A stretch of DNA of 63,753 bases, counting the filler, from Octopus bimaculoides (lineage: Eukaryota): assembly GCF_001194135.2 (NCBI RefSeq). It is 7 parts of 5 records of this genome, joined end to end, with 100 filler letters (N's around TTAATTAATTAA, not from the genome) between each part and the next. Parts side by side here need not be neighbours in the genome. Positions count along the whole stretch, not along the records: positions 7,982 to 16,722 come from NC_068982.1; positions 16,823 to 29,381 come from NC_068994.1; positions 29,482 to 38,137 come from NC_068994.1; positions 38,238 to 57,065 come from NC_068984.1; 3 more parts are not named here. One strand, 5' to 3'. The position numbers were made by a program, and so were the translations under genes. The notes under the pieces are model-generated. The model worked only from the letters and a program-made list of their open reading frames with translations, was not told the origin of the DNA and made no database searches. Of this stretch, positions 2,291 through 57,165 are shown one piece after another; position 1 is the stretch's first letter, and every line of letters starts with the position of its first letter.

Positions 2291-2324
<34 letters not shown>

Positions 2325-3019: not shown

Positions 3020-3087
<68 letters not shown>

Positions 3088-3141
3088 AGAGATTTATGTC
3101 AAAGAAATTACAAACTTCAAGAGACATAAAATAAGTTGTTT

Positions 3142-3267
3142 TTAACCTTTAGCATGCTGTATGCACATCATGTTATCATATGAGTTTTCTCCCCTCTCAA
3201 TGTACCAGCAGCTACCAGGGAGAAAACTCTATGGTGACATGATGCACCTAAGCATACTAAAGATTAA
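3142..3267. mobile_element. piggyBac-type palindromic MITE
   Basis: TTAA at both ends (3142-3145, 3264-3267), TIRs CCTTTAGCATGCT/AGCATACTAAAGA, and internal arms TCATGTTATCATATGAGTTTTCTCCC/GGGAGAAAACTCTATGGTGACATGA. Confidence 0.75.
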
Positions 3268-3398
3268 TGGAGAAAATTGAAATCGATAAAGCGATAAATG
3301 ACAATGTAAATATTAGATTTAAAAAGCCCTTGGACGGAAAAAGCTCACATCTGTTTACATGAGACATACCATATATATATGTGTGTGTGTATGTATAC

Positions 3399-3448
<50 letters not shown>

Positions 3449-7514: not shown

Positions 7515-7881
7515 TTTACTCTTTTTACTTGTTCCAGTCATTTGACTGCGGCCATGCTGGAGCACCGCCTTTAGTCGAATCAAATCGACCCCAGGACTTA
7601 TTCTTTCTAAGCCTAGTACTTATTTTATCGGTCTCTTTTTGCCGAACCGCTAAGTTACGGGCACGTTAACACACCAGCATCGGTTGTCAAGCGATGTGGG
7701 GGGGGGGGCAAACACAGATACACAATATATACACACATACATATATATATACATATATACGACGGGCTTCTTTCAGTTTCCGTCTACCAAATCCACTCAA
7801 AAAGCTTTGGTCGGCCCGAGGCTATAGTAAAAGACACTTGCCCAAGGTGCCATGCAGTGGGACTGAACCCGGAACCATGTG
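7515..7881 (-). mobile_element. SINE family B copy (head cut by gap)
   Basis: Near-identical to 51791-52201. Confidence 0.9.
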
Positions 7882-7981
7882 NNNNNNNNNNNNNNNNNNN
7901 NNNNNNNNNNNNNNNNNNNNNNNNNTTAATTAATTAANNNNNNNNNNNNNNNNNNNNNNNNNNNNNNNNNNNNNNNNNNNN
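7882..7981. other. Assembly linker: 44 N + TTAATTAATTAA + 44 N (also 16723-16822, 29382-29481, 38138-38237, 57066-57165, 61622-61721)
   Basis: Six identical 100-bp spacers, each with a 12-mer that places stops in all six frames. Confidence 0.97.
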
Positions 7982-8018
<37 letters not shown>

Positions 8019-8040
8019 TACATATATATTTTCTTTTTAA

Positions 8041-8290
8041 GTTTCAGCTTAGAGCTGCGGCCATGCTGATGCACCACCGTGTTGCTACACTGTTATTACA
8101 GGGAGATTCTTACAATATGTGGCACTTGGTGAAGAATGGAGTTTGATTTAGCAACCCTCATTTGCACCTGCTGCCGCGAGGTAGGTTCATCTGGGACTCT
8201 CGATAGGAAGAGGTCCAGCTTTGATTTAAAAACTCCTACATCTACGTTGTGCAGATTCCTCAGGCTCTTTGGGAGAATATTAAAAAGCTA
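8041..8290 (-). mobile_element. 3' end of a CR1-like LINE
   Basis: Minus strand translates LFNILPKSLRNLHNVDVGVFKSKLDLFLSRVPDEPTSRQQVQMRVAKSNSILHQ, homologous to 51016-51352. The 3' UTR reads GGTGGTGCATCAGCATGGCCGCAGCTCTAAGCTGAAAC. Confidence 0.8.
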
Positions 8291-8299
8291 TATATTATT

Positions 8300-8500
8300 T
8301 TATTCTTTTACTTGTTTCAGTTATTTGACTGAGGTCATGCTGAAGCACGACCTCTAGTCGAAGAAATCGGACTCAGGACATACTTTTTTTAAGCCTAGTA
8401 CTTCATCTATCGGTCTCTTTTGCCAAACCAATAGGTGTCGGGGACATTAACACACCAACGTCGGTTGTCAAGTGATAACGGGGTGAGGGACAAACACATA
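8300..8500 (-). mobile_element. SINE family B 3' half
   Basis: Matches the tail portion of 51791-52201. Confidence 0.8.
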
Positions 8501-8689
8501 AATATATCAGCATAGGGTAAGTTTGCTGATGCATGATAGCCTCTGTGGAGATACAATTAAGGAACTGCATTATCATGAACCACACACACCCACTCACGCA
8601 CTTTCGGCATGATAGATCGTTAGCCACTAAAGGTTTTTCTATTTTTTCTGTATTCTATTATTTTCTCTCCTTGTTTATTTCTGTGTTCC

Positions 8690-8723
8690 TTTGTGTTGAA
8701 GAGCGTAGGCTCGAAACGCAAAA
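8690..8723 (+). ncRNA. Decayed hammerhead-like motif in a Penelope-type terminal repeat fragment (~8600-8830)
   Basis: TTT GTGTTGA A GAGC GTAG GCTC GAAAC GCA AAA. Stem II is perfect and followed by GAAAC, but the core has several substitutions. Confidence 0.35.
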
Positions 8724-8943
8724 AACTTTCTCAGTTCCCGAGCGTTAAACTAATACACCTGTTTGTTGTTTACACATCCGTCTTCGGGTTTTGTTTCTTT
8801 TGTAAATTCTCACAATAAATATATAAGTACGTGTGTTTGTATATACATACATTTATATATGCATATATATATATATATATANNNNNNNNNNNNNNNNNNN
8901 NNNNNNNNNNNNNNNNNNNNNNNNNNNNNNNNNNATATATAAA

Positions 8944-9200
8944 AGTTGTTTTTGGAAGACCAGCTGTCACCCATATATACCGGCCTCCCCACTCCACGCC
9001 ACTAGTGTTATGGAAGGGAAAGGTAAAAGTTGATTCAGCTTGGCACCTGTGACGTCGCAACTCATTTCTACACCTGAGTGAATTGGAGCAACGTGAAATA
9101 AAGTGTCTTGCTCAAGAACACAACTCACTGCCCGTTCCGGGATTCGAACTCACGATCTCATGATCGTAAGCTCAACGCTCTAATCACTGAGCCATGCGCC
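8944..9200 (-). mobile_element. tRNA-derived SINE with a distinct tail
   Basis: Head GGCGCATGGCTCAGTGATTAGAGCG..GAGTTCGAATCCC (same head type as 37577) with a different 3' part. Confidence 0.8.
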
Positions 9201-10324
9201 TTCACATATATACATATATGCATGTATATGTGTGTGTGTGTGTGTGTATCTGTGTGTGTGTGTGTTTGTTCAATAGATATTTTTTCAGTTATGAATGAAT
9301 CTTAACCGAATCCATTCCGGAGAAATCATTAAAAAAACCGCTTCAGTCTTACGCTAGTGTATTCCCTGAAGAAAAGTTTTTATTGGAATTTCAGTAATGA
9401 TCGATCGATGCAGAGCGATGAACTTACAAGATTCAAACTGATTTGAAATATACAATCTTCATTCAGCAAGAAAGATAAACATAACAGTTGTAGTCACTCG
9501 GAAATCAGCTCAAAGTTCACACTTTATTGTTGACCTAATGATTTCGTTGACGTGACGGTTTAAAGCAACATATGGATTACATCGAAATATCTAAATTACT
9601 AAATCTTGAAACTGTATGAGTGCTAAAAGTAAGATTATAGGGCAAATGTTCTGCATAAGACAAGAGTTTCGGTTAAACAATATCTGGAAATCAATATAGA
9701 AACAGAGTCAAGACTATTGAAAAGGTTGCAAGACGCAACGAAAATTTTAGGAAAATAAAAATAATAAGTGGAAATTTTAACGGTGAGTGTGTTATATTTT
9801 AAGTCACGATAAGAAAATGACTCTCTCCAGACACAACAGAATACTAGTCTATGTATTTTTCAGAAGGAGAAAAAATAAATTACTGCCATTTATTATGTAG
9901 ACTTCTGATTAATAGTTTACGGATACGCAACACACACATACACACACACACACCCACACACCCACACACAAACACACACACACATGTATATATGTATATA
10001 TAGTATATATACATAAACACACACGGGCGCACCACATGCACACACGCTCACACGAACAGACGAACAAGCATATAGTTTAATGGTCCGTTAAGCTAAGATG
10101 TACAATAATGTAATCTATTCGGTAATGATACATATGTGTGTGTGTGTATGTGTGTATGTGTGTGTGTCTATGTGTTTGTGTGTATAATAAATATGTAATT
10201 TTCTCTGCACACTGAATGTTTCGAAATTCTATCAAACGTTAATTGGATTTAACTGTCAGGCATGAATATTTACCTGGACTCTCTATTCTTACATTTACAG
10301 GTATCTAATTTTTGAATATTGGCT

Positions 10325-10386
<62 letters not shown>

Positions 10387-11200
10387 CATATACATACATA
10401 TATATATAGACAGATATATATGTATGTATATATGTATATATATAAATATATATATACGTATATGAATATATATCTATATATGTATATACATATCTAACTA
10501 TGTCTCTCTCTATATATGTATGCATCCATACATATATACATACATACAAGCACATACATGCATACATATATGTGCGTATTGATACACCAGTAATATACAC
10601 ATAGAGAAAAGGAAATTATACGCGTTTGTAATCACACTCATTGTTACTCCCTAATGCGCGCACTTGTAAAGATTTTGAGGTCGACTAAGGGATAATATAT
10701 CTGTATATACTATTATTTTATCTTTGTTTACATATCCATTGAAACGGTTTTAATTTATGCCCTCGGTTCAAATATAATTGACCAATTATAGAGATCGCTG
10801 GACTTAGCCTGTTCTTAAACGGACAACGGGTTGGTTTCTCTGTAATATTTCTGTGAGTACACTATATTAAGCCTCCTACGTTTATGTTTTGCATACATAT
10901 TATGTATGAGTTTTTTCGTTAGCAAACGTGATCCCCTTTGACAGTCATGTTAATAATTTTCCTTGCATTATTTCTTCTTGGTAACTTCTTTTAGTAATTC
11001 TTAAAACATCTTGGTTCCCCTTTTATACCGGAATTACCCGAAAAAAGTTTTTGCTCCCTAGACCAGCACAAGATCACTCTCTTACCTACGAACTTTGATA
11101 GTAGATTATATGCCTTTAATATTTTGTGCCTATAAACTCCTTTCCTAGGCCATGTTTTCTTTCCTATTCCTTCTTCCTTTTGTTTATTTTGCATTTCCTT

Positions 11201-11313
11201 TACTCTGATGAAGCATCATGCCCTGATTCAGATGTTCTAAGAAGATGAAGAATTCTATCTTCGCAATTATTTGTAGACATTGATTGACATCGTATGCGGA
11301 AACGGCCGTAAGA
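11201..11313 (+). ncRNA. Type-I hammerhead-like motif with eroded stem I
   Basis: CTGATGA (11205-11211) A GCAT..ATGC G GAAAC GGCC GTA AG. Stem III is the palindrome ACGGCCGT and the triplet is GUA; stem I has only 2 bp (CT/AG). Confidence 0.5.
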
Positions 11314-12909
11314 TTGTTATGTCACAGAAATGTTATGTCATGTTTTGCATTAAACAATAAGCAATACATGTAGTCCAACTGATGTGCTTGTTGATCTGAG
11401 GTTTTCTCCATTTTCTGATGATAAATAAATATATATACATTGGCAGATCTAAAATTTTAAAAACAAATATATATGTACATATGTATGTATATATGCGTGT
11501 ATGTACGCACGTATGCATACAATACGGGGATTATTTCAGTTTCCGTCAGCCAAATCAACAATTCGTGGTCGACCTGGGATTACAGTTGAAGACATTACCA
11601 CACACTTAATTTGTACCCAGAACTGTACTGTTTGGAGGCATGTTTAATTCCCTCAACACTGTGCCTGCACGTAAATATATATAGCATTTTTTAAATCTAT
11701 GTATGTATATGTATGCGTATGTATTTGTACGTATATGTATTTCTATGTGATTGTTACTTGTGTGCCAACTATTTCTGAAAATTGCCGGTATTCTTTTTGA
11801 ACTGTCAAATGTGCTAAATATTGATTCAACGAATAGCGGAAGGTGAGAGAGAAAGGCGATAATTGTGTGATTGGCATTTGAAAGGTTACAAGTGTTTCGC
11901 AGAAATGGCTTTGTTTCCTAACGCGTCGCTAATAGCCGGAAGGGTCTTTTCAAATTCTGGTACTTTGCAACGCGTTGTGGGAGAACGAGTGGTGGCGTAA
12001 ATATTCTCGCCTTTTAATCATCGTCATTCATCCTGCAGTTAGAGCTTAGCACTGAATCCTGATAAGAAGTACTGTTTTTGCATTTTGCATAGTAACCTTG
12101 CTACAGCAACATAGCTACCCTAAGCTGAACACTAAGCGTTCTTAATTTTGCCAGTATCGGTTACATATCCAGATAAAATTTGAATAGTGTTTTCTCAGAC
12201 CGCAGTTAAGTCGTTCAGTATTATGAGTGTGTTTCGATCGACGTATTTTTGATGTTACCAGAACGTGATTCTCTGAGTAGCTGAATTTAATTTAAATTGA
12301 ATTTTACAACTTTTCATGAACAGTCATAAATTCATGTAAGTTAACTTTTAGTATGAATATTGTATTCAATTAATGCAGCATATTTCTTAAGTTTACATCA
12401 ATATAAACTATGCAAATGAACTGAGTGTGAAAACGCGTGATTAGATGAATTTCTTAAATATTCACATTTTGTAACTTCTACTTCTATACGCGTGTATAAA
12501 CACTTAGACGTATATATANNNNNNNNNNNNNNNNNNNNNNNNNNNNNNNNNNNNNNNNNNNNNNNNNNNNNNNNNNNNNNNNNNNNNNNNNNNNNNNNNN
12601 NNNNNNNNNNNNNNNNNNNNNNNNNNNNNNNNNNNNNNNNNNNNNNNNNNNNNNNNNNNNNNNNNNNNNNNNNNNNNNNNNNNNNNNNNNNNNNNNNNNN
12701 NNNNNNNNNNNNNNNNNNNNNNNNNNNNNNNNNNNNAAATAATATTTCGGATAGAATAAATGGGTTAATAGAAACCAAGGTAGCAAAGATCACAAAATAA
12801 CTGTGGTGTAAACCTCTTAGTGAGGCAGAAACTCCTTGATATTTTAGGTATTTGAGTATATATAAAAATTTAAGGAATGCAGTAAACGCATGTAATAACT
12901 GCATACTTT

Positions 12910-12995
12910 ATTCAGACATATGTTTCGAAGAATTACAATTTATGCGATCCATAGGAATCGTCGATGTTAAGAATGTAAACTTCTCCTCAGGGAAT
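12910..12995 (-). ncRNA. Type-I hammerhead ribozyme-like motif, intact core (Penelope-like pLTR type)
   Basis: Minus strand reads ATTCC CTGAGGA GAAG..(49 nt)..CTTC GAAAC ATAT GTC TGAAT. Core CUGAGGA/GAAA/GUC is intact; stem II is GAAG/CTTC with further TTACA/TGTAA pairing; stem III is the palindrome ACATATGT; stem I has 4 bp plus one C-U mismatch; AATAAA follows. Confidence 0.7.
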
Positions 12996-13382
12996 GTATG
13001 GGAACCATCTTAAACGTAAGACATTATGACCGAGTATGAAAACTATAGTTGGAGAAGGTTAGAGCTTAATCCATTTGAAAAAACCGTTGGAGATTAGGAC
13101 GCTACCAGATAGTACGTTGGACAAGAAGGGAAGAAAAAAAGAAAAGAAAAAAGAAAAAAAGAGAAAGAAAATTCAGAGTGGAATGTTATGTAATAAAAAA
13201 GCATTATAAATGGGTTTAATCTTGTGTTTCTACAAAAATATTCAGATGAGTGTATATACTCATTTATACTTATGTGTATGCTCATATATACACACAAACA
13301 AATCCACAGTTACTCCCATAAGTTCATGTATGTATATTTATATACATACTCACGTCAAAACTCACACTCATATATACATACG

Positions 13383-13422
<40 letters not shown>

Positions 13423-14759
13423 CATATATATATATATATATGCATATATATANNNNNNNNNNNNNNNNNNNNNNNNNNNNNNNNNNNNNNNNNNNNNNNN
13501 NNNNNNNNNNNNNNNNNNNNNNNNNNNNNNNNNNNNNNNNNNNNNNNNNNNNNNNNNNNNNNNNNNNNNNNNNNNNNNNNNNNNNNNNNNNNNNNNNNNN
13601 NNNNNNNNNNNNNNNNNNNNNNNNNNNNNNNNNNNNNNNNNNNNNNNNNNNNNNNNNNNNNNNNNNNNNNNNNNNNNNNNNNNNNNNNNNNNNNNNNNNN
13701 NNNNNNNNNNNNNNNNNNNNNNNNNNNNNNNNNNNNNNNNNNNNNNNNNNNNNNNNNNNNNNNNNNNNNNNNNNNNNNNNNNNNNNNNNNNNNNNNNNNN
13801 NTAATAGCAATAAAAGTAAAAATAAAAATAAAAATAAAAATATAAATACATATATGTACACCAGAATCTATACAAACACATCTAGTTTCATACAAAAACA
13901 TGAATATATATATATACACACACACACACACACTCTCCCACAGATACACGTATATATATTAACACTTATACACGTATAATCATACACACATATATATTTT
14001 GTATGTATTTGTTGTTACATGAATTTATAAAGACATTCATACGTAACTTAATATACTCCCTAGATGTGTGGTAATTATTAATAAGGTAGAGGGATATTTA
14101 ACTGAAGGTGGTTCATATATAAGTGAATGAGATGATAAATGAATGAAAATTACTAAATGAATTAAAGAATAATAAAGTTAATAGGTTGTCTATTAATCTA
14201 CATGAAATGATTACTTTATTATTATATGCTAGACAAGTTGGGCTGAATTAGGGGTTGAAAGAGTAAATCTTGCTTAAGAAGACACAGTCAAAAATATAAA
14301 TAAGCTTTATTACAGGAATTCCGTAACATATTTGTTGATGTAAAAGTTTTATCGAGTATATTATGGGTGAATGTTACCATACATAAACCAAAAATAATGC
14401 GCTTTTTTATGTTCAAAGATTTTATATGTTCTAATTTAGGTTAATAAATAAAGAATGTTTAGATAAATTATGTCAATCGTAAACAATTTTAATCTCCTAA
14501 CATATGAGGGAGTTAATAACATGTTTTACTAGAACTATTTGATGAACTCATATATTACGGGTTATTTTGATAGAGTTTTATAAAAACAGTGATTGTTATT
14601 TAAATGCTGAAAATACATGTTGTTGCCAATGTTTACATCTGTAAGAATTTTCTATGAACGTGTTTACAGCATGGCGGAAGAACGGTACAGTTAAATAATT
14701 TTTAATAATCTGTTCTGATAGATAATTGTGTTTTTTGGTCATTTATTCTAATGGAAGCC

Positions 14760-14841
14760 ATTCCTGAGGAAGTGCCAAACGTCAGACATCCAACGGATCA
14801 GTCTCTGGATAGAGTCAAGCACAGAAATGTTGACATCGAAT
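14760..14841 (+). ncRNA. Type-I hammerhead ribozyme-like motif, intact core
   Basis: ATTC CTGAGGA A GTGC..(inner hairpin AGAC-ATCC/GGAT-GTCT)..GCAC A GAAA TGT TG ACA TC GAAT. Stem I is ATTC/GAAT, stem II GTGC/GCAC, stem III ATGT/ACAT, and the cleavage triplet is AUC (14835-14837). An AT-rich tail with AATAAA lies downstream. Confidence 0.7.
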
Positions 14842-16360
14842 TGTAAATAATTAAATTAATGGAATAAAAATCGATCGTGTTGGAAGTCTCTATCGTTTTT
14901 AAGTATACAAATTTGAAACCTTGGATATATATATATATATATATATTTATGNNNNNNNNNNTAATTATTAATTTTATTACTAATTGATGATTCCCTGCCC
15001 TGCATATCTATATATATATATATATATATACATATATATATACAAATATATCATGAAATACATACCTACAGTATGTATATATATATATATATATATATGG
15101 TATAGAGTTATCAATAACCAGTTGTTAGAACTTATATACAATGATTTTGAGTGAAGCGTTAGGTAAGAAACGAGCATAAAATATATATAAATGCAAAGAC
15201 AACGAGGTTCACGTGATTAAATTCATTAGCAGAGACCCGTTTCTGCTATTATAAGAAGCAGTGCACTCCGAGCTGGTCGCTTGTGCAAAATTCTAAAGCT
15301 TCTTAGAAGCCATTAAAATGAAATGAATGCTTATTTCAGAAATCCTTTAAATACATTGAGTTAGTTATATTCAAATCCATATAAGGTCTCACCTATCCTG
15401 TGAGAAGCGAGATACCTAAATATGTGATATAAAGCCATTAACATGAATCACAATGTGCTTACCTTTCTATGACTCATTGTTACGATTATTAATGGAGAAG
15501 ACCACAATGACCTATGTATAAGGAATACATTTTGTGATTTAATAAAATGTAAACTTAAATATGGTTTTGTGTTTGTATGGTTTCTTCAGCATTTCTTTAG
15601 AAGATTCTAATATATCTGAAAAGGCTTTTATAAGTACATAACATATAAAACTTCCTTGATAATTTCTTAAATTCTCTTTTACACATCATTATATATCATT
15701 ATATACTTTTCCACTTAACTTCGTAACTTTTCTTCTTTACAGTAAATCTACCGAAAAATCTACCTGTATTTTAATATAATTTAAAATTACATTTTCGATA
15801 TTTTTCTCGCTTTTATTTTTTCAATTAATTCAATCTTATGAAATAACTTGTGAATAAAATTGAAAAACAAATATTCAAATTTATCTGATTTGAACTGAAA
15901 TTGATATTTTTTTCTTTTGAGATGGAAGGTAAAATATCGAAAAGAGTTTGCCTATGGAAGTCAGCAATAATATCTACTTCTTTCGAAAGAAATGAACTTA
16001 AACTTTATACGACAATGACTTTTTCAATGTATACTATATTACATATAATTCCTGATACTGTTAGACCGTGTTAAACCGATTAAACAATCTATTTTCGTAA
16101 TTTATATGGATTACAATCTATTAATCTCTTGTCTCATTAGCTTACAAAAATTATACTCGTCTTAGGATTTCCCTCATAAACCTTGTATCAGATAATATAT
16201 TGTACTCCTCGCATTAATACATTTGAGGACGCTGAATGCAAATGGTATCATTTGCAGAGAGTTGTGAAAATAATTTAAGTAGTTTAATAAAATATTAGCT
16301 CTCAAAGTTTAATGTGAAATGACAGGAACGAAATTGGCTCTAGTACGTTTTATATATCAA

Positions 16361-16512
16361 ATATCAAATATTAAAGGACTTGTATACTTTCTTGCATTTA
16401 AGCAGTCTTCAACGTCCCCGGTTGTGACAGGGATGTTTCCTTAAAAAAAAAACTGGGACCTTGAAGACTGCATAAATGCAAGAATGTATACTAGTCCTTT
16501 AATATTTGATAT
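16361..16512. mobile_element. Inverted-repeat (~62-bp arms) element with an outward-facing hammerhead-like motif in each arm
   Basis: Arms 16361-16423 and 16451-16512 are near-complementary. Right arm (+, 16456-16497): GGAC CTTGAAGA CTGCATAAATGCAA GAAT GTATAC TA GTCC. Left arm (-, 16376-16417): GGAC GTTGAAGA CTGCTTAAATGCAA GAAA GTATAC AA GTCC. Confidence 0.65.
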
Positions 16513-16822
16513 TCAATATTTCATTTATTCAATAAGACAATCAATACTGCATTTCATTTTACTATATATACTATATATACTATATATTCTATATCCTACA
16601 TTAATATTATAAGAATATGAAAAAGAAACATAAAAAACAGACACAGTTGGAATTCATTTGAATAATATATACAACAAAAACCAATAATATTTACGATGAA
16701 AATCATGACTTTATTTTAGATCNNNNNNNNNNNNNNNNNNNNNNNNNNNNNNNNNNNNNNNNNNNNTTAATTAATTAANNNNNNNNNNNNNNNNNNNNNN
16801 NNNNNNNNNNNNNNNNNNNNNN

Positions 16823-17097
16823 AGCTCCATGAGGCTCCGGCAGGGGTTGGTGGCGAACCCTGCTGTACTCTTTCACCACAACTTTCTCTCGCTCTTACTT
16901 CCTGTTTCTGTTGTGCCTATAATTCAAAGGGTCAGCCTTGTCACACTGTGTCACGCTGAATATCCCCGAGAACTACGTTAAGGGTACACGTGTCTGTGGA
17001 GTGCTCAGCTAATTGCACGTTAATTTCACGAGCAGGCTGTTCCGTTGATCGGATCAACTGGAACCCTCGACGTCGTAAGCGACGGAGTGCCAACAAC
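16823..17097 (+). mobile_element. SINE family A body and tail (head lost in gap)
   Basis: CCTTGTCACACTGTGTCACGCTGAAT..GCACGTTAATTTCACGAGCAGGCTGTTCCGTTGATCGGATCAACTGGAACCCTCG, also at 30844, 37577 and 60295. Confidence 0.9.
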
Positions 17098-17477
17098 AGT
17101 GTGTTGTCATATAAATTCCTTCGTTCCTTCCTAATTTTTATTAAATTAACACGAAAATTATTTTTTCGTAAAGTATTATATAATATTACAGCCCTGTCAT
17201 CCCCTACAGCTTTTCTTTGTTGTTTTTGAAATGTGAAGGAATATATGACGACTCACTGCGAAAAAGGGAAGGAAAAAATCATTTTTGACACCTGCTTCTC
17301 TCCACTTTCAATCAAGGTTCCAAAGCTGCCAAAACTGCTTGAGACATTTTTTTTTTTTATTTTCGGGTAGATAAGGCTGTTAGTAATGTTAAATAACCGA
17401 TGGTAGACAGTTTGGTTGCTGATCAGAAAATTTCTCCATTTTCTACTTAATTTATATATATATATATATAGGAGGAA

Positions 17478-17720
17478 TTTCAACCATGTTTCGTGGTCTG
17501 CTACCACAACAGCTCCTTTATAGGATTCAGTTAGCTCAAGACATCATCAGGAGGAACCACGTCCGGTTTTGGCCCCTACTCCTCTACCGTTTTGATGTGG
17601 CAGGGCCCCCCCTTTCGGAGGTGTCCTCAGCTCTGGTGTTGGGTGCATGTCTTCTTTCTTCTATTCCCTGGCCTCTTCGATGCAGCATCAACGAGTGTCA
17701 GCGTCCGGCTGATCGTCATG
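17478..17720 (-). mobile_element. Possible Penelope-like 3' end relic with a weak hammerhead-like motif
   Basis: Minus strand has CTGATGA (17550-17544) TGTCT..AGAC CAC GAAAC ATG GTT GAA with weak stems. Upstream, a frame reading IEEARE*KK loosely resembles the end of a GIY-YIG endonuclease. Confidence 0.3.
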
Positions 17721-17740
17721 TCAAATTCCCCTTTTTATAT

Positions 17741-17844
17741 CTGCTGCTAGGCTCCAGCAGTCAGCCCCAGCTAGTTGTCACGTGACACTGTCTAAATTTC
17801 CCGCTGCTAGGCTCCAGCAAGCAGCCCCAGCAAGTTGTCACATG
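17741..17844 (+). repeat. Imperfect tandem duplication, period 60 bp
   Basis: C.GCTGCTAGGCTCCAGCA..CAGCCCCAGC.AGTTGTCAC.TG at 17741 and 17801. Confidence 0.9.
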
Positions 17845-18571
17845 TGTATGTATATATATATATTTGAAATTACAAATCCTCTAGAATTGATCTGCCTACG
17901 AATGATATCGGGTAACGTTGGTTCCTGTGCCGTTCTTGATCTTTTTTGTTTTTGTTTTCTTTTGTTTTTTGTCAAGCTTTCGAGCAAGGCTATCACTTCG
18001 TTTAACGTGTAAAAGCACGATGGCAAAATGTGTGAAAACTGTAAAATAAGCGGCAATGCTGCCACAAGGTGAGGCCAACATGACTGCATTGCTTCATCGT
18101 TTAGCCGGAGTAAAAGACGGAAACTATTAAAGTTAATCTGTTGAGAGATCATCGGTTAAGAAGGGATCCATTAACGATTGGTCCATTAAGAGATGACTCA
18201 TTTAGATTTGATCCATCCATTAAGAGGTGAGATATTCAGAGGTGGTGCATCAAGAGTCGATCCATTGATGTTTATACAACGTTAAATTATCTTCAAGGTC
18301 GGCTCAATGAGATGAACACTGCCATTACGGAATAGAATTAAAAGAAAATTAATTTTTCAATAATACGAGTCACAATAAATTTCCCACAAGTTTTTTCTGA
18401 AACAAAACAAAATTTAAATAACAGTTGAAGAAACTGGATTTTAACATTAAGGATTCTTGTGGAATGGTAACTACGCTATCATATTGAGCTTCCTTTGAAT
18501 GCGTGCGTGCTGTACGACACGTGGTTTTGATATTACATAGTGAAAATAAAGGCCCGGTCTTTGTCTGTCTG

Positions 18572-18620
<49 letters not shown>

Positions 18621-18689
18621 NNNNNNNNNNNNNNNNNNNNNNNNNNNNNNNNNNNNNNNNNNNNNNNNNNNNNNNNNNNNNNNNNNNNN

Positions 18690-18728
<39 letters not shown>

Positions 18729-18744
18729 AGTAGTAGTATATAAT

Positions 18745-18848
18745 GAAATGGAGTGTTTTGTCCAAGACCACAGCACGCTGCCCGGTCTTCGAATCGAACC
18801 GATGACCTGATGACCGAGAGTGTAACAGTCAAACCACTAGGCCACACA
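18745..18848 (-). mobile_element. SINE tRNA-like head fragment
   Basis: GTGTGGCCTAGTGGTTTGAC..GGTTCGATTCG A and B boxes. Confidence 0.65.
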
Positions 18849-19590
18849 CCAAGTGGTTAGAGTGTTGCACTCGCAACGCACTCACTTGCGTCCTGGGAAA
18901 TTCGTTTTATAATTGATATTGTGACACTACAGCGACTAAAACAGCCGGTCAGTAGCTGTGCACATTGTAATTTGAAATATTTCTGCGCATTTGGGATTTT
19001 ACCAGGGATCAAATAATCGTTGAATGACCATTGACTCTTCTGAGCTTATTATCTCTACTTGGCTGGTTATGTTTTTCATCTCTCAAAGAGTTCCGTATTT
19101 AGTTTTTAGCAAGCAAAAATGATGGTGTTGCCACTTCAATCAGCGACTGTTCACTGTCTACTTATTGTAGTTGATCATGCTTTAATTATAACATATCTCT
19201 AGTTATCGTAAATTAAGGATAACGGTAATATAGAGAAAGAGACTTTGCTGTCGGTTTGGGGTCGCCCCCGCTAAGTAGGTGGATGTTGGGAAGAAAAGGG
19301 TAGTTATGAAGGGATTCCAGGTGGTTTAAAGTTCGCCTGTACTCGTGATGAAATACAGAGGGACTTGTCGAATTCCCACAGCACGTCACAAGGCCACGTG
19401 TGCCAGTAAGTGTACCGGTAGTCAATGGAATATATGAACTCTCATCAAGCGATATTTATTTAGCTTTGCAGAGATTGAAGGTTATAAGAAAGACGGGGAG
19501 GAGTGAGAAAAAGAAAAGAGGGAGAGAAAAAGAGAGACACACAAAGAGAGAGAGACACACACAGAAAGAGAGAGAGAGAGACATACACAA

Positions 19591-19639
<49 letters not shown>

Positions 19640-20157
19640 GAGCGAATTCGGGGCGAAGAGATACAAGAAAATATGGATGATTTCAAAGTAGCAGCTTGTA
19701 GATAAATAAGTCAGAGACGATTAAATTCTTTATCATTGTTCAGATAAGCCTTCAACAATATGGCTATTTGCAAATATCGAAACCTAGAGAGCTGATATTT
19801 ATATAGCTTAGTAGAAACGGACAGTGGATGTAAAATAAAATCAGGAAAAAAGAGAGAGAAAGAAACGAAAAGAGAGACGAGATGTTGTGTATATAAAACA
19901 TGAAGGTTTTTCAAATAAAACATTTTAAATGAAAAAGACAGAGGGAATTAAAATATTATCTTTCTTCAGACACACGTTTCAGCTACTTAGAAATACCCAC
20001 AGCTTGCTGGCAATGTTTATTGCATATATGCACACACACACACACATAGATACATACATACATACGTATATACATACATAAAACAAATGTATATATATAC
20101 ATAGATATATAAATATATGTATGTACAAATATATATATACATATATAAATATGTATG

Positions 20158-20212
<55 letters not shown>

Positions 20213-20213
20213 T

Positions 20214-20357
20214 TTATTAAAAAGCAGCAGAAATATCACAAAAACTGTTACTCGGAGTTTCACGTTCTTGTTCATCGGACAGTTCTGCAAGAATTTTAAC
20301 GAGAACATGAAATTCTGAGTAACAATTTTTGTGATATTTCTGCTGCTTTTCAATAAA
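20214..20357. mobile_element. Inverted-repeat (~58-bp arms) element carrying a minimal hammerhead-like motif
   Basis: Arms 20214-20272 and 20298-20357. Minus strand 20284-20243 reads AACTGT CCGATGA AC AAGAAC GT GAAA CT CCG AG TA ACAGTT, with a perfect 6-bp stem I, 2-bp stem II, 3-bp stem III and a U4C core variant. Confidence 0.7.
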
Positions 20358-20700
20358 CCATATTACTCTACCTCTGGCATTTCAGTACTCTTTTTGCCAC
20401 ATTCTTTCGTATTTATGTGCTTACTCCGGTATATATATATATATAATACAATATATATAATACAATATATATAATACAATATAGTATTTATATTTATTCA
20501 TTTCCAAGGGTTTTCTTTTAATAAGTATATCTGTTATAGAAATATTTATTTTATTTTTTAGCCCTTAATCTTTGGTTCTGATTCAATAAAAAAATGTGTT
20601 CTTCTACTCGGATGATATCTGAATTTTATCATAGATTCATTGTTGAATAGTTTTATCATGGCATTATGCCAGAAACAAGCACTATTAGGTTTCTTTTCAC

Positions 20701-20784
20701 ATAAAAGTGCCCCACTCTTATACAAAGGTACCCCCCTCTTATATAAAGGTACTTCACTCTTATATAAAGGTACCGCACTCATAT
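20701..20784 (+). repeat. 21-bp tandem repeat, 4 copies, consensus ATAAAGGTACCCCACTCTTAT
   Basis: Read directly at 20701, 20722, 20743 and 20764. Confidence 0.9.
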
Positions 20785-22487
20785 GGCTTAGATTGTTTTA
20801 TCTATGCTTCTTCTCTTACTTAGTCCTTAAATCCTCTTCTAGATTTTCATATCTTAATAGATAAATTTTACTATGTTTAGAGACACATTTTCCCCTGTAT
20901 TTCTAAGTCCCACACTTAGATCACAATGTGACCTCCTTTGTTTTCCATTTTAGGCCCCTTTAGTTGATAATCATATGTTAAGCCACCCGTTCCCCTCCTC
21001 TTTGTGGTTATCACCTTCTCTTTATATCCATTATCTTACTAGCATCTTCTGAGACATATTCTATTCTGTAGGTATGGCTGATTTTATGGTCATAGTGAAA
21101 TAGAGGCTAAGAAGAGTCTCTGACATTTGATAATTGATCGCCAAAAACAAGTACTTAACTGTCAATTCCCAATGGTTTTAATTCTAAGGGTATGTTGACT
21201 ACTTGCTGCATTAGGTCTGTTGAAAGTGATAAGGATAAAGATTAATGTAGCTATATCACTATTCCCTCTTTATTGATCTCCATTATTTCCTTCTGTTACT
21301 CTAAATCATAGTAGGTTTTAGATATTTTTCCTTAAATTCATTTTGTTACAATGATAGCCAAAAGAAGCATTGTATTTTAGTCTCTAGTACTGATGAAAAG
21401 TTAGCTAAAAATAAATTACAATGGGATATCCTGCTTGNNNNNNNNNNNNNNNNNNNNNNNNNNNNNNNNNNNNNNNNNNNNNNNNNNNNNNNNNNNNNNN
21501 NNNNNNNNNNNNNNNNNNNNNNNNNNNNNNNNNNNNNTTCGATCAGTGTGGAATGTTGGCTTGCTCACCTAGCCAGCAGGGTGGCGTCATTTGAAGGCTA
21601 AAACAATGCAAAAGCGCATCATGACCAGTGATGTTTAACAGCATTTGATACCCTGGTCAGTCACGTGATCACGTGATACATGTATATTTGTGCGTATGTA
21701 TGCATGCATGTATATATTACTCTAAATATTTATAGATTTTATAGATTTATAGAAATCGGATTTCTTATTTCTTAGAAATTTGTTCCTAACCATGACAAGA
21801 CTTTCGGTCTTTGGCAAACCTCGTTTGGATGAGACGCGAACCAAGATTTTTATCTGCTGATAACTAATCGAATCTGACACCACCGTCAATTTGCCACAAC
21901 CACCTGTACTCCACATCTTTTATCAGTCAAATCTACTGAAAATGGCTAAATAAAGAATGAAATTCAATGAAACAAATATAAAATATATTTCAAATAGAAA
22001 AATGCAAGGTATAGAGTAAATGTCTTCTGTTATACAGAGAATTCGATCTTGCTATTCAAACTGCATTTATATTCTGATCAATTGCTGCATTCGATATCGT
22101 GACATAGCTAAATACATACTGTTATTTTATTCAATATACATACAGGAACAACGAAACACGACCAATACAATTAAGTTTTGTGGCATTATATTTATACATT
22201 TAAATCACCAATTCCATTACAATCTTTTTGCTATTATTGCCATATTTGTATAGAAGCTTTTACTAAATCTAGCTTGCCCTTAATTCAGATGCTGCCGTTG
22301 CAACTACGGCTACTACTACTACTACTACTACTACTACTATTACTGTTACTACTGCTGTTACTGCTACTGTTATTTCTGAAACTACTGCTATTACTATTTA
22401 CAGTGACAATAGTAACAATAATAGTATTTTCGTCCTTTTCTTCTCAATGAACTATATACACAGTACATATATAATATTTAAACGTGC

Positions 22488-22526
<39 letters not shown>

Positions 22527-22657
22527 CGTGTATGTGTGTGTACAGATATATGTAAGCATAGCAAGCCTACACCGCCATGTAAACACAGACACAATACAAC
22601 ACATACATACATGCATGCATGCATACAGGTATGTGTATATGCATTATGTAGATAGAT

Positions 22658-22723
<66 letters not shown>

Positions 22724-22755
22724 GTAGGTAGGTAGGTAGTGTTATATATGTGCAC

Positions 22756-22792
<37 letters not shown>

Positions 22793-22802
22793 NNNNNNNN
22801 NN

Positions 22803-22840
<38 letters not shown>

Positions 22841-23167
22841 CAATAAATATTAATTAACGATACATACAAGCCTAGTGTACAAAAGTATGTATGCGCATAA
22901 CATATATATACATACACAGTAATGAATTAAAATGAACAATAATTTGTATGTATGCATGTATGTATATGTGTAAAACGCATGTATTTTAATGTATTCCCTG
23001 TCACTGGTAGCTTTTTTCGTATGCGCTCTTTGACTATCAATAGCGAATAATGCACGTGCGTAAGTGTTTCTGCAAAAGGTATGCTTTGAGTCCTGAGCTT
23101 CTCAACCATTGCTGGAATGTATGTATATAGTCGTGCGGAAATGTTGTTCGTGTGATACTTTGGCATA

Positions 23168-23220
23168 TTGTACTGAAGACAGCAAGGGGTTTTACAACCC
23201 CAAGCCAGAAATCGATCCAA
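23168..23220 (+). ncRNA. Decayed hammerhead-like motif
   Basis: CTGAAGA (23173-23179), a stem II with 8 of 12 positions paired (GGGGTT/AACCCC core), then GAAA TCGA TC with an ATCGAT palindrome and AUC triplet. Stem I is weak (TTG/CAA, offset by 2 nt). Confidence 0.45.
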
Positions 23221-23833
23221 AATTAACCATCTTTTTTCAAAAAAAAATCTTATTCATTTTTTTCATCTGCCCATTTACAACCCGTGCTAACGGAGTACAG
23301 ATGTGGTTTTTAGAACCATTTTGGCATCTATTTCTAGCGTGTTGGTGGGGTTTATCAGCACCCTTTAATACAATATTATATAATTATAAAATAGTATGTG
23401 TGTGTGTGTGTGTGCATGTGTGAGTGTGTGTGTGTGTATGATGTATGTATATATACGATCGAATTCCTTACAGATTCTGTCTACAAAATCCAATTCATAA
23501 AGCTTTGGTCGTGTTTATAGGAAACACTTGTCCAAGATCCGCGCAATGAGAGTGAACCCAAGACCACGTGTTTCGAAACCATCCTTCTTGCCCACACACC
23601 TACGTCTGCGCCCACATTCAGATTTTATATAAATTTTAGAATTTACAGGTACATACAACATCATTTGTTTTCTTTTCATTAATATTTTCTCTCTTGCGTC
23701 CTTTTATTTCATTCACTTCTTTCATTTTAATCACAAACTTCTTTTTTAACTTCTATCCTTTATTCAAGATTATTCACGATTTTACATTTCGTGTTTAGAT
23801 CGTTTGGCTTAGTTTTCTTGTTTTCTGTATGTA

Positions 23834-23870
<37 letters not shown>

Positions 23871-25211
23871 NNNNNNNNNNATATATATATATATATATAC
23901 AGAGAGAGCGAGAGAGAGAGAGAATTGCTATTATCTCTTCGCTAATGTTGAATTTTCGCTTTTCATTTATGTATTTAATTATTTACTTTTCCCCTTGTCG
24001 GCCTTTCATCTGGATTACTGCATATTTTATCTTTTCATTACCAAAACACATATACAGACAACCGCACATAAAGCGGACACACATACACAAACACGGATAC
24101 ACCTACAGACGTACATACATAATACACACATATATAAGTGTGTGTGTAAGTGCACGAGTGATTATATATTTGTATATACGTGTATATATGCATGAATATA
24201 AAGATCTATATTCATGCATACGCAAATTAACTCACACTTAAATATACATGCATACATATATTTATTTGAGTGTATTAATGAACATACGTGTGTGTGTTTG
24301 TTTGTAAAAATGTATATATATATATATGTGTGTATATATATATATGTGTGTATATACATATATGTTTATATATATAAATGTATATATATATATATATATA
24401 NNNNNNNNNNNNNNNNNNNNNNNNNNNNNNNNNNNNNNNNNNNNNNNNNNNNNNNNNNNNNNNNNNNNNNNNNNNNNNNNNNNNNNNNNNNNNNNNNNNN
24501 NNNNNNNNNNNNNNNNNNNNNNNNNNNNNNNNNNNNNNNNNNNNNNNNNNNNNNNNNNNNNNNNNNNNNNNNNNNNNNNNNNNNNNNNNNNNNNNNNNNN
24601 NNNNNNNNNNNNNNNNNNNNNNNNNNNNNNNNNNNNNNNNNNNNNNNNNNNNNNNNNNNNNNNNNNNNNNNNNNNNNNNNNNNNNNNNNNNNNNNNNNNN
24701 NNNNNNNNNNNNNNNNNNNNNNNNNNNNNNNNNNNNNNNNNNNNNNNNNNNNNNNNNNNNNNNNNNNNNNNNNNNNNNNNNNNNNNNNNNNNNNNNNNNN
24801 NNNNNNNNNNNNNNNNNNNNNNNNNNNNNNNNNNNNNNNNNNNNNNNNNNNNNNNNNNNNNNNNNNNNNNNNNNNNNNNNNNNNNNNNNNNNNNNNNNNN
24901 NNNNNNNNNNNNNNNNNNNNNNNNNNNNNNNNNNNNNNNNNNNNNNNNNNNNNNNNNNNNNNNNNNNNNNNNNNNNNNNNNNNNNNNNNNNNNNNNNNNN
25001 NNNNNNNNNNNNNNNNNNNNNNNNNNNNNNNNNNNNNNNNNNNNNNNNNNNNNNNNNNNNNNNNNNNNNNNNNNNNNNNNNNNNNNNNNNNNNNNNNNNN
25101 NNNNNNNNNNNNNNNNNNNNNNNNNNNNNNNNNNNNNNNNNNNNNNNNNNNNNNNNNNNNNNNNNNNNNNNNNNNNNNNNNNNNNNNNNNNNNNNNNNNN
25201 NNNNNNNNNNN

Positions 25212-25248
<37 letters not shown>

Positions 25249-25343
25249 CATACATACATACATACATACATACATACATAAATACATACATACATACATA
25301 TATACATAGACAGATAAACAGACAGATAGATAGATAGATAGAC

Positions 25344-25430
<87 letters not shown>

Positions 25431-25997
25431 CGGACAGATATACATGTATACGTATGCATACATTTCATTATATTTAGAAGTATAAATATATACCTCTATA
25501 GAGATCTGATGCGATTTTATTATTCCAATTTACTATAACGATCTCAAGATCTCCATGCACCAGTCAGCAATGTTTTTCCTCTTTTAAAATATTAAAACTT
25601 GCTATTTGTTTACTTCCATTGTTAATTTTTAAAATTTTCTTTAACATATTTCCCTCGGCTGTCAAAAGTGACAGCTAGTTGAATGAAATTTTTTCACAAT
25701 AGTTGCTTTTTATTTCTCTTCTAACTTATGAAATTATGACATATTATCAACATTTTCTATTAAGACTGAACTGCTTAATCGGCGCTATCTTTCTGTTATC
25801 ACGAATGTAATGGCTTCATAATACCGACGAAGCCTAAGTTACGTATTTTGTTTGCTTTGGTTGGAAAGGAATAAAAAAAGAATTATTGAAGCTCCTCTAC
25901 CAGTAAAAATGGTTTGTGAAAAGAATAAAAATAGAGATGAATCGTTCAGTTTTAGAAGCTGCAGTATTGTTGTTTAAATTGAATAAACGTTAGCAAA

Positions 25998-39550: not shown

Positions 39551-41175
39551 TACTGTCTACATTTAACTGTATTACCACCGGAAGGGTTTCATTTGTTATT
39601 GTATCTTCCGATGACAAATTTAAATGCACTCCGTTTTTCAGTGATTTACTTAGAACCTTGCAGTTAACTTATCTCGTGAGAGATTAATAGATGTTGTGCA
39701 TCATGTAATGAATTACCTGGTAGCACAAGCTCATATGCAAATCCTGTATGGGCTTAATGTACGGATGTATAGCATGAAGCTTTGCCTTGGAGTAAATTGA
39801 AGACCTTTACTATTCACTGCATCCGCTGATACTCGAGATACATAATGAATGACAATGATAAAACGGAAGGCGTTAAATTATCACCTTTTAGAATTGCTGC
39901 AATTACATCAAAGTTCTTTCTTTATATGGATGATTTTAAATATCTAGAATACCTGTGATGAGCTCATAAAAGGATTTCTTCACCCAGAAGGCAGTGTCAG
40001 GGTCAGCTTGCAACGAACAGGCCAATATTTGGATAACTGATTTAAGCCGAACCTTTAAAATCAATATCTTCCGTGTTCGCATTTAGCCACTTCTATTTAT
40101 TGTATGTTTCGGTGACACAAACACTTTCTATAAGATTTCAAGAACAATTAGATAAAATTCTAAGTTTGGTAAGAAATCATTCACGCAATACACATCCAAT
40201 ACTAAAAGAAATTTATGGGCTTCACTTCTTATGCCACAAAACGTAACCAAGGTAGAATAGAATTTACTGCACACTATTTCAGAGCATGAATTAGCCTCAT
40301 CCTTTGTCCTTTGAATACTCTGGACAACGAATTGGTAAAGAAGTTATAGCGATAAACCAAGAGTCAGCATATTTGATCTATCTTAATGCGTTCTGGGTTC
40401 AAATCGCGGAGAGGTAACCTTGCATTTAATCTTTTCAAGGTCGATAAAAAAAGTATCAATCCAGGGCGATAGATTTGGCAGTGTATGAAAATCAGACCGG
40501 ATGCTTTGCAGTGATTGTTCAGGCTGTTTAGGTTCTGAGATCAAATCTCACCACAGCTACTTCGGTTGTATACTTAACCCGTTGTCCGGTTTTACACTAC
40601 CATTGATACATTGGGTACATTTAGTGAACCCCACTCTGTTTCCAGCATTCGGCCTAGGCTTCCGGTTCGAGAATACCCTCCTCTGTAATGTGTCTTGAAA
40701 AAAACTTTCCCTCTTGATTAATAAATTGGTAACAAACGCTGCTAAGAAATGTCTTAAACTCCCCTGTCCCAGTGATACGGTTAGAAATTCAGACTAAGCC
40801 TCAAGAGATACATTTGTGTCCATAGAATATGATTAATGCTTTATTTTATTTAACCTTCATCTGTCGTTCACGACAAGAGAATCCATCATATATGTATTAA
40901 TATGATATATAGGTACATAGACATGTTATTGATGTCTTAAGAATTTTATAAACTTTCGAGAGAACGTGAAATGATTGTTTTGTTATGTTTTGTTTTTTGG
41001 AAAGATCTCGAAGCACATCCTACAAAGCTATAAATAAGAACATGTAAATATTCGGTTGGTTTGTGTGAAACATTCTAATAGATGTTTTAACTGAATAGGA
41101 AAAAAAACAAAGAACTGTTATTATTATAATATATAATAGACTGGCGTTAATGTATTTCAATATGAGGGCGGCGAA

Positions 41176-41400
41176 GGCGGCGAGCTGGCAGAAACGTTAG
41201 CACGCCGGGCGAAATGCTTAGCGTTATTTCGTGTGCCGCTACGTTCTGAGTTCAAACCCCACCGAGGTCAACTTTGCCTTTCATCCTTTCGGGGTCGATT
41301 ACATAAGTGCCAATTACGCACTGGGGGGGTCGATGTAATCGACTTAGTCCTTGTTTGTCCCCTCTACGTTTAATCCCCTGTGGGGAATAAAGAAATAAAT
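41176..41400 (+). mobile_element. SINE family C copy
   Basis: Near-identical to 25998-26230. Confidence 0.9.
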
Positions 41401-41781
41401 GTATTTCAATATATATAAAGATGATGATGATGATGATGAAGGATGGATGAGGAGAAGGAGGTGGTGGTGGAGGCAGGGGGAAGAATGTGGAGTTGATAGT
41501 TGTAATTTAGATGATGGTAAGTTTGATATTGGTGAGAAATGCCTATTCCGAATTTAAACTCAAAATAAAATTGATTATTGTCAGGAGGGATTTGGAATAA
41601 ATAACTGTCATTTGGGTTTCATTTTTTCCAATCACTGACTAAGAAATGATGATGCTGTTTTTTGAAATGATCATTCAAGCGCGTGTTTAAGGAAAGGTCA
41701 AAAGGAGTTCGACATACATACATACACACATAAACACAATGATGTCAAACACACACATATATGTATATGAGTATTTGTATT

Positions 41782-41822
<41 letters not shown>

Positions 41823-41903
41823 GTAAATATAGATAGAGAGATAGATAGTTAGATAGATAGATATAGATATAGATATAGATATAGATATGTATATGTGTGT
41901 GTG

Positions 41904-41941
<38 letters not shown>

Positions 41942-42055
41942 CGTAAATATATATATATATATCTATACAGTTCTATATTTAAGAGATGAGGAATTATGTA
42001 CATTATCTACATTATTTACTTTTGGCGGATATTTGTCCTCATCTTCTTTGTTGTT

Positions 42056-42100
42056 AACACAACGTTTCGGTTGTATACCTTCCAGCCTTTATCAGGTGTC
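42056..42100 (-). ncRNA. Minimal type-I hammerhead-like motif (G8A, probably inactive) in a Penelope-type terminal repeat fragment (~41970-42150)
   Basis: Minus strand: GACAC CTGATAA A GGCTG GAAGGTATA CAACC GAAAC GTT GTGTT. It has a 5-bp stem I and an AACGTT palindrome at stem III. Confidence 0.6.
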
Positions 42101-57063: not shown

Positions 57064-57165
57064 TANNNNNNNNNNNNNNNNNNNNNNNNNNNNNNNNNNN
57101 NNNNNNNNNTTAATTAATTAANNNNNNNNNNNNNNNNNNNNNNNNNNNNNNNNNNNNNNNNNNNN

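Follow-up and report, generated by a model that had tools for sequence, protein, structure and literature searches.

Short motifs that resemble type-I hammerhead ribozymes are scattered through a stretch of Octopus bimaculoides DNA that carries an exon of the Iroquois gene Irx, raising the question of where so many unlike ribozymes in one place could have come from. The stretch, hereafter the window, is 63,753 nucleotides (nt) long and consists of seven parts of five records of assembly GCF_001194135.2 joined end to end. A preliminary description had listed ten motifs and attributed them to many ribozyme-bearing families of Penelope-like elements (PLEs) or retrozyme-like elements that had colonised the locus. 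We find that the motifs are real as a set, that they are mostly decayed and that about a dozen lie in the window. With a probability of roughly 0.84, they are the decayed 3' pseudo-long-terminal-repeat (pLTR) ends of dead, 5'-truncated insertions from many PLE families.

Hammerhead motifs exceed chance as a set

We scanned the window, which is AT- and microsatellite-rich and includes 6552 N, with a type-I hammerhead descriptor that scores core mismatches (at most 2), helix I, helix II and the self-complementarity of stem III. Controls were local dinucleotide shuffles, 100 each at 100- and 500-nt blocks, plus the reversed window. At a score of at least 6 there were 13 non-redundant sites, against shuffle means of 2.93 and 2.94 (maxima 10 and 9; 0 of 200 shuffles reach 13) and 1 site in the reversed window. 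Seven sites combined such a score with a perfect inner palindrome of at least 8 nt, where the shuffles gave 0.44 and 0.63 (0 of 200). A stricter class with at most 1 core mismatch and a helix I of at least 4 held 4 sites against 0.6 and was matched by 1 of 100 shuffles in each set. When the U3-A8 core was permitted, the total rose to 26 sites against 11.5 (0 of 100 shuffles), the palindromic sites to 14 against 3.45, and sites with both an intact core and a perfect palindrome numbered 3 against 0.23. These significance figures are optimistic since the descriptor was written after the sites had been read, and about 3 of the 13 top-scoring sites are expected by chance. The preliminary description had asked whether shuffled sequence would yield as many type-I motifs; it does not (13 against 2.9), and its emphasis on palindromic stems III is borne out by the enrichment of palindromic sites, except at 8690 as that motif now stands.

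Individual motifs and their families

The candidates are as follows; unless another source is given, each comes from the descriptor scan.

3481-3568 (-): type-I hammerhead with G5A, a 61-nt structured helix II region, an 8-nt palindrome and (TA)n 36 nt downstream
8690-8723 (+): weak, decayed minimal hammerhead with a good helix II, 3 core mismatches and a stem III, ACGC, that is now non-palindromic (score 1.5; fold z -3.4)
9714-9750 (+): minimal hammerhead with a U3-A8 core, an extra base before G10.1-C11.1, a 5-bp helix II, a 4-nt palindrome and a 3-bp helix I (score 8, 0 mismatches)
11203-11312 (+): type-I hammerhead with an intact core (11205-11211), an 85-nt helix II region, palindrome 11302-11309 and a helix I of only 2 bp
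12910-12995 (-): type-I hammerhead with an intact core, a long helix II region, 8-nt palindrome 12916-12923 and a mismatched first helix I pair (by eye; score 2.5, under the scan threshold)
14757-14844 (+): best type-I hammerhead, with an intact core (14764-14770), a 53-nt helix II region, a near-perfect 10-nt palindrome (14827-14836) and a predicted cut after C14837
16374-16419 (-) and 16455-16498 (+): foldback-arm hammerheads, each with C3U, one extra base and one further change
17480-17552 (-): weak candidate with an intact core, poor helices I and II and (TA)n just downstream (score 2.5)
20242-20285 (-): hammerhead with U4C in the left arm of a foldback
23169-23222 (+): weak candidate with an intact core, a 6-nt palindrome and an unpaired helix I
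26685-26726 (+): hammerhead with a U3-A8 core, a 6-nt palindrome, a weak helix I and (TA)n 41 nt downstream
42056-42100 (-): minimal hammerhead with G8A, an extra A before G10.1-C11.1 and stem III ACGT, within a short relic that has (TTA)n on one side and (TA)n on the other
54327-54371 (+): weaker candidate with 2 core mismatches, a 6-bp helix I, an imperfect 10-nt palindrome and (TA)n 34 nt downstream

Seven of the ten motifs first described hold up (11203, 12910, 14757, 16374, 16455, 20242 and 42056) and three are weak (8690, 17478 and 23168). The sites at 3481, 9714 and 26685 and the weaker one at 54327 had been overlooked; two of these have the published U3-A8 core. Two of the stems III first quoted also need correction: the window nowhere contains AGTATACT, which combines the two foldback arms AGTATACA and TGTATACT, and the palindrome AACGTT includes A14 and H17, hence the stem III proper is ACGT. 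The core is wholly intact at 9714, 11203, 12910, 14757, 26685, 17478 and 23168, and the remaining motifs have 1-3 mismatches.

The motifs come in two shapes. Three motifs (42056, 9714 and 8690) follow the published minimal form, in which stem III is 4 nt long and the G-C pair is preceded by an extra base. The second shape is marked by a palindrome of 6-10 nt, and its helix II is frequently flanked on each side by an unpaired base. The helix II region spans about 50-85 nt in 3481, 11203, 12910 and 14757. By eye, the first helix-II pair is G-C in 7 of 12 motifs (3481, 8690, 9714, 11203, 12910, 14757 and 42056) and something else in 5 (16374, 16455, 20242, 23168 and 26685), and the extra base after A9 is absent at 3481, 12910 and 20242. 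The helices had been called mutually unrelated. This is right in that flanks mostly do not align: a good alignment was obtained only between foldback arms (z 45 and 29), the sole further match being 32 nt between the 3' flank of 11203 and about 17420-17450 (z 5.6). It goes too far for 12910 and 14757, which are not wholly unrelated because they share helix I (ATTC/GAAT) and CTGAGGA. Since the flanks of different motifs do not align well, several families are involved.

Two sites were rejected. One at -33820 (CTGATGA...GAAA) lies in the open frame of a coding-like relic and its stem III fails to form; a site at -19889-19975 reaches a score of 10, yet its helices consist of A and T only, its 14-nt stem III is imperfect and (TA)n is missing on the downstream side, and it was omitted as probable chance. 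A ~92-codon open frame without Pfam match at 33620-34031 (-) is the source of the false core at 33820, and it may be a transposase-like relic. The stretch around a further candidate at +38592 is presumably a copy of a short interspersed nuclear element (SINE).

Placement beside (TA)n and foldbacks

For placement we used 16 palindromic candidates, selected by score and palindrome, outside microsatellite. A (TA)4 tract lies within 130 nt on the 3' side of 8 of the 16 and within 130 nt on the 5' side of 0 of the 16; the background is 13.9% of 3650 random positions, giving a binomial p of 6e-4 at a cut-off that was set after the distances had been seen. Two inverted pairs, recovered by self-BLAST, also contain hammerhead motifs.

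16354-16559: head-to-head foldback with arms 16354-16418 and 16455-16519 and one hammerhead motif per arm
20207-20428: head-to-head foldback with arms 20207-20272 and 20298-20363 and (TA)n at both ends

In the first, an extension of about 40 nt is present on the right arm only and reaches a TA-rich tract. In the second, the left arm holds the whole hammerhead (-20242-20285), and the right arm retains just the 3' half of it and carries a one-sided extension of about 65 nt. In both foldbacks the hammerhead 3' ends point outward and the tail is on one arm only. PLE insertions are reported to have (TA)n targets, inverted 5'-truncated copies and 30-40-bp one-sided tails (PMC8557442); the 3' (TA)n polarity and the two foldbacks with one-sided extensions match these endonuclease-positive (EN+) PLE insertions. 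The foldbacks also match the opposite-strand hammerhead pairs of PMC4209133. As to the retrozyme-like tandem arrays suggested earlier, no tandem array in the window contains a motif, and self-BLAST returned no second same-strand copy.

Other inverted-repeat hairpins, with arms 72-84% alike and no high-scoring hammerhead, lie at 2637-2760, 37072-37326, 48785-48827 and 48956-49032. These four are probably miniature inverted-repeat transposable elements (MITEs) or other foldbacks.

A Penelope-like reverse transcriptase fragment and hammerhead cores in related loci

A trace of a PLE protein lies in the window.

36552-36749 (-): Penelope-like reverse transcriptase (RT) fragment of 66 codons, with relatives in the Hydra clade (protein matches; profile E 2e-22)

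This fragment, already reported at 36560-36750 and confirmed here, matches 11 proteins at 45-60% identity and is the only match in the window to a profile of 161 proteins. The distance to the nearest motif is 5.3 kb, and other repeats and gaps intervene. A Pfam rescan named neither the fragment nor its relatives. Its PLE identity follows from motifs in the relatives together with their precomputed PF26215: the 66 surviving codons lie outside the diagnostic RWK, DKT, CxCX5C and GIY-YIG motifs, the last of them C-terminal and lacking CCHH, and these occur in the nearest relatives. Among the 43 relatives of at least 600 aa, DKT or DKS is found in 38, CxCX5C in 22, RWK in 10 and DKG in 3.

We located 14 loci encoding relatives of the fragment, none of them on viral contigs. 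Four of the 14 run past the 3' end of the open reading frame (ORF), and a type-I core is found there in all four. In locus L001 (4246-4287) the core is intact, stem III is a 9-nt near-palindrome and a partial tandem copy begins after the motif; at L006 (1686-1723) there is one mismatch; L003 (4047-4084) has two and is followed by (TA)n; and in L014 the core, read by eye, is cut off at the contig end. Stem III is palindromic or near-palindromic, at 8-9 nt, in L001, L006 and L003, and the hammerhead lies about 1.1 kb (L001) or 1.6 kb (L003) past the matched ORF. No motif in the window was found joined to a PLE ORF, and a core after the ORF is present in 4 of 4 informative related loci.

Three further observations concern these loci. 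L014 (1-3787), on a contig filed as a bacterial metagenome-assembled genome, carries a Penelope-like ORF that is nearly complete; an inverted truncated copy lies on its 5' side and the hammerhead core at the end of the contig. The contig is likely to be eukaryotic DNA within a bacterial bin. In L001, about 900 nt of GC-rich, apparently open frame lie between the RT-EN match and the hammerhead (3150-4290), which suggests a C-terminal extra domain or a second ORF of the PLE. A pyrimidine-rich tract stands just 5' of helix I in L001 (4220-4245) and L006 (1660-1685) and, in the window, upstream of 3481 (-), 8690 and 11203; it terminates in AG in the two related loci and at 3481. These tracts recall Drosophila virilis Penelope, in which the intron end is reported to abut helix I (PMC4209133).

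A multi-copy family at 14757

The best motif belongs to a longer element.

14000-14920 (+): one copy of a multi-copy repeat, at least 900 bp long and bounded by TA-rich tracts; hammerhead near its 3' end, no ORF recognised (read and contig coverage)

In DNA run X4 this region is represented by 327 contigs covering all 30 bins, with a summed depth of 2,180-36,056 that is not convertible to copy number; two listed contigs have depths of 39-50. The region, long helix II region included, is plainly a repeat. Position 14842 is G in 37404 of 37868 depth (24 contigs), and because this G pairs with C14759 and lengthens helix I, the window copy has lost a helix-I pair that most copies keep. Among the 40 of 159 differences listed for the region, none lies within the core. 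The earlier idea that only the ribozyme-containing terminus is left does not apply to this repeat, the one motif examined in this respect, which extends at least 750 bp upstream.

Three RNA runs gave 176, 132 and 83 reads on this region. Of these 391 reads, 305 are less than 90% alike to the locus, most of them running into unlike sequence, and 2 are at least 99% alike, with both mate directions similar. Read ends gather at no one place. Low-level transcription takes place from related copies elsewhere, and the 391 reads, a weak test, give no sign that the locus itself is transcribed or cut. For 10600-12500, no RNA data set was listed that contains the sequence, which counts in neither direction. 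No back-joint indicative of circular RNA was found among them, the libraries being ordinary cDNA and the family only one. A related subfamily accounts for most of the RNA reads; all it has in common with the locus is 14727-14783, the 5' half of the hammerhead, its loop II and upstream sequence differ, and it has C at 14761.

Origin of the motifs

The motifs, their excess over shuffles, the (TA)n polarity, the foldbacks, one multi-copy family and like motifs in the relatives of the RT fragment are all observed. We read them together as the remains of PLE 3' ends. An active element would be transcribed as a partial tandem, and its protein would nick AT-rich or (TA)n DNA and reverse-transcribe from 30-130 nt downstream of the hammerhead. 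Copying would mostly stop early, so that the hammerhead end survives, at times with an inverted second copy that yields a foldback. In the parent RNA, two hammerheads may pair through the palindrome into a double hammerhead that is cut slowly after NUH, perhaps with the element's protein. Dimer formation and cleavage, like the PLE clade from which each motif came, are things we infer. Among ten predicted homodimers the minimum-energy structure is a double hammerhead in three: 3481, 20242 and 16455 (right arm). With the core held open in 14757 and 11203, helix II and the intermolecular stem III are predicted to form and helix I is not. The lone copies in the window, with no same-strand partner nearby, are probably inert. 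Of the preliminary view that many ribozyme-bearing families colonised the locus, one part is supported: the motifs are type-I hammerheads with a palindromic stem III, they belong to several families unrelated to one another, and they are placed as PLE 3' ends would be. No motif in the window was found joined to a PLE ORF.

A number of results weigh against this origin. The 161-protein profile, which covers the Hydra clade only, finds no PLE protein remnant beside any motif, Pfam finds nothing meaningful upstream of six motifs, and the window motifs show no DNA likeness to the hammerheads of L001-L014. The evidence on copy number covers one family, for which 40 of 159 differences are listed. 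Monomer folds reach z of -2 or below against shuffles in only 3 of 14 cases, 7 of 10 homodimer folds are other than a double hammerhead, the core-open fold of 14757 costs 10.8 kcal/mol with helix I absent, and the homodimer result for 20242 is altered by trimming one flanking base per end. GAA plus a palindrome is by itself not enriched (21 of 864); the hammerhead signal resides in the joint pattern. RNA-seq read ends, proposed earlier as a check of the predicted NUH sites, do not pile up at the 14757 cut site in the 391 reads of three runs, a weak test of one motif. This lack is consistent with PMC11167929, where cleavage of PLE hammerheads is reported to leave no RNA-seq read ends.

Could the motifs be chance matches of a relaxed core in AT-rich, palindrome-rich DNA? 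For the set this fails and seems to us very improbable: none of the 200 shuffles attains the observed number of sites, only 1 site turns up when the window is reversed, and the (TA)n polarity is one-sided. It may hold for 8690, 17478, 23168 and 54327 and for about 3 of the 13 top scores, in keeping with the yield of the shuffles themselves (about 3 sites of score at least 6, or 11.5 with the U3-A8 option) and with intact cores that arise accidentally, such as -33820 in a coding-like relic. Rfam might also seem to speak for chance: a scan of the window gave 0 matches at gathering score, only microsatellite-driven miRNA among the 150 of 339 matches listed, no hammerhead match for any motif and nothing hammerhead-like on 14000-14920. 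However, Rfam equally fails to recognise the hammerheads of L001, L003, L006 and L014. Just as hard to credit is the idea that selection maintains the motifs as ribozymes because they cleave Irx pre-mRNA or some non-coding RNA in the vicinity. The region is possibly Irx intron 1, and the core-intact 9714, 11203, 14757 and 26685 are on the Irx strand, but the two strands are used about equally, most copies are damaged in core or helix, and 14757 has lost the helix-I pair that its family keeps. Further, only 2 of the 391 RNA reads are at least 99% alike to the 14000-14920 locus, with no end pile-up.

A closer relative of our reading is that some families, in particular the two foldbacks and the 900-bp repeat that ends at 14757, represent non-autonomous elements (retrozyme-, SINE- or MITE-like) mobilised by PLE proteins and not truncated autonomous PLEs. 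We consider this unlikely, if less so than the two explanations above. At least 750 bp upstream of 14757 are multi-copy yet without protein match, both foldbacks are short and ORF-free, the sequence in common with the related subfamily is confined to 14727-14783, with unlike sequence to either side, and a 2026 preprint places the origin of animal retrozymes in PLE pLTRs (10.64898/2026.07.22.740005). Real PLEs, however, can have long 3' untranslated regions, as the distances in L001 and L003 illustrate, and inverted truncated copies are a normal PLE by-product (L014; PMC8557442); moreover, there are no tandem units around the motifs and no second same-strand copy in the window. Decayed 3' ends of truncated PLEs remain our preferred origin.

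The Irx exon and other features

The gene that gives the locus its context is represented by one exon.

60810-61112 (+): Irx (Iroquois) internal coding exon (protein matches)

Its matches include the Octopus vulgaris iroquois-class IRX-6-like protein, at 100% across 42% of the query, and a protein of Argonauta, at 85%; the exon opens at a splice acceptor. The first ~32 residues of two relatives, sought three ways, are not encoded in the sequenced window. Because the exon starts at an acceptor and these residues are absent, exon 1 would lie in a gap or upstream of the window, and therefore the motifs may sit in Irx intron 1, which may exceed 60 kb unless exon 1 is in a gap. The motifs had been placed upstream of Irx; this is true relative to the exon at 60810-61112 and need not carry over to the gene as a whole. 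Nothing in the analysis points to a role of the motifs in Irx control. The NCBI-named O. vulgaris Irx protein likewise starts within the corresponding exon.

Among the other features, broken frames at 27265-28130 (+) are, by eye, suggestive of a mariner-type transposase relic, and 5420-6000 (+) and 50831-51235 (+) of RT and 3'-end fragments of long interspersed nuclear elements (LINEs). An identical 12-mer flanked by two 44-N runs recurs at six places (7926-7937, 16767-16778, 29426-29437, 38182-38193, 57110-57121 and 61666-61677) and is assembly spacer, with no biology.

Comparison with known systems

Minimal hammerheads in the pLTRs of PLEs were described by Cervera and De la Pena (2014, PMC4209133), with about 2,000 plus 1,300 in Schistosoma, 4,000 in the coelacanth and 9,000 in Xenopus. 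Those motifs are reported to be heterogeneous within a genome, mostly single and dispersed with some opposite-strand pairs, probably from truncated PLEs, and in most copies without an adjacent ORF remnant; single motifs did not cleave, and dimers had low activity (PMC4209133). The window motifs share with them this heterogeneity and dispersal as well as the type-I topology, the short helix I, the U3-A8 variant, palindromic positions 15.2-16.2 or a small palindromic helix III, and, in some of them, the extra base after A9. They differ in that the main text of PMC4209133 gives a helix II of 6-8 bp, whereas four window motifs have 50-85 nt between A9 and G12 together with 8-10-nt palindromes, and in several of them helix II is bordered at each end by an unpaired base. 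That main text does not name octopus, and no ORF was recognised next to the window motifs.

The RT relatives share the clade motifs, (TA)n targets and hammerheads near the 3' end with the Hydra-clade EN+ PLEs (Craig et al. 2021, PMC8557442), in whose section 11 Mollusca are named and cephalopods are not. The 66 codons in the window hold no diagnostic motif, and the window hammerheads cannot be assigned to the Hydra clade. Cleavage of PLE hammerheads is reported to require the element's protein and to be dispensable for insertion in vitro (PMC11167929). Non-LTR animal retrozymes also carry type-I hammerheads in ORF-free, AT-rich repeats, are dimer-dependent in amphibians and are probably PLE-mobilised (PMC7229834; 10.64898/2026.07.22.740005). 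They differ in having tandem 170-400-nt units, mostly canonical hammerheads and abundant circular RNAs, tandem units being absent from the window.

For cephalopods, PLEs have been annotated as an order in O. vulgaris with an expansion at distance 0.2 (PMC13282606), and 235 Rfam hammerhead-1 hits are given for the giant squid genome (PMC6962438); ribozymes and hammerheads are mentioned neither in the main text of PMC13282606 nor in passages of PMC8967140. The earlier phrase "a major unannotated repeat class" is thus overstated, given the O. vulgaris annotation and the thousands of dispersed minimal hammerheads per genome known since 2014 (PMC4209133), and it is apt in the sense that Rfam leaves no mark on the motifs. 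We found no literature on octopus hammerheads or on an extended stem II with Penelope in a search that most subscription papers lay outside; examples with a long helix or from molluscs may be present in the supplements of PMC4209133. A tentative and rather doubtful suggestion is that octopods hold an undescribed variant of Penelope-linked hammerheads, with a 50-85-nt extended helix II and a stem III palindrome of 8-10 nt, some of them on 900-bp elements that lack an ORF, and with a density of roughly 10-14 relics per 57 kb. Such a density, if true genome-wide, would be far above that of other animals, for which 2,000-9,000 minimal hammerheads per genome are reported.

The pattern itself is the one already described by Cervera and De la Pena (2014); the octopus examples are what is new, and the 50-85-nt helix II of some motifs is the sole mildly unusual trait. 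Octopus joins the animals in which Penelope-type hammerhead relics are scattered throughout the genome, a result of modest weight. Because Rfam misses them, the motifs offer a cheap classification of "unknown" octopus repeats, and the families with a long helix II and a long palindrome are natural material for the question of what role the hammerhead plays in PLEs.

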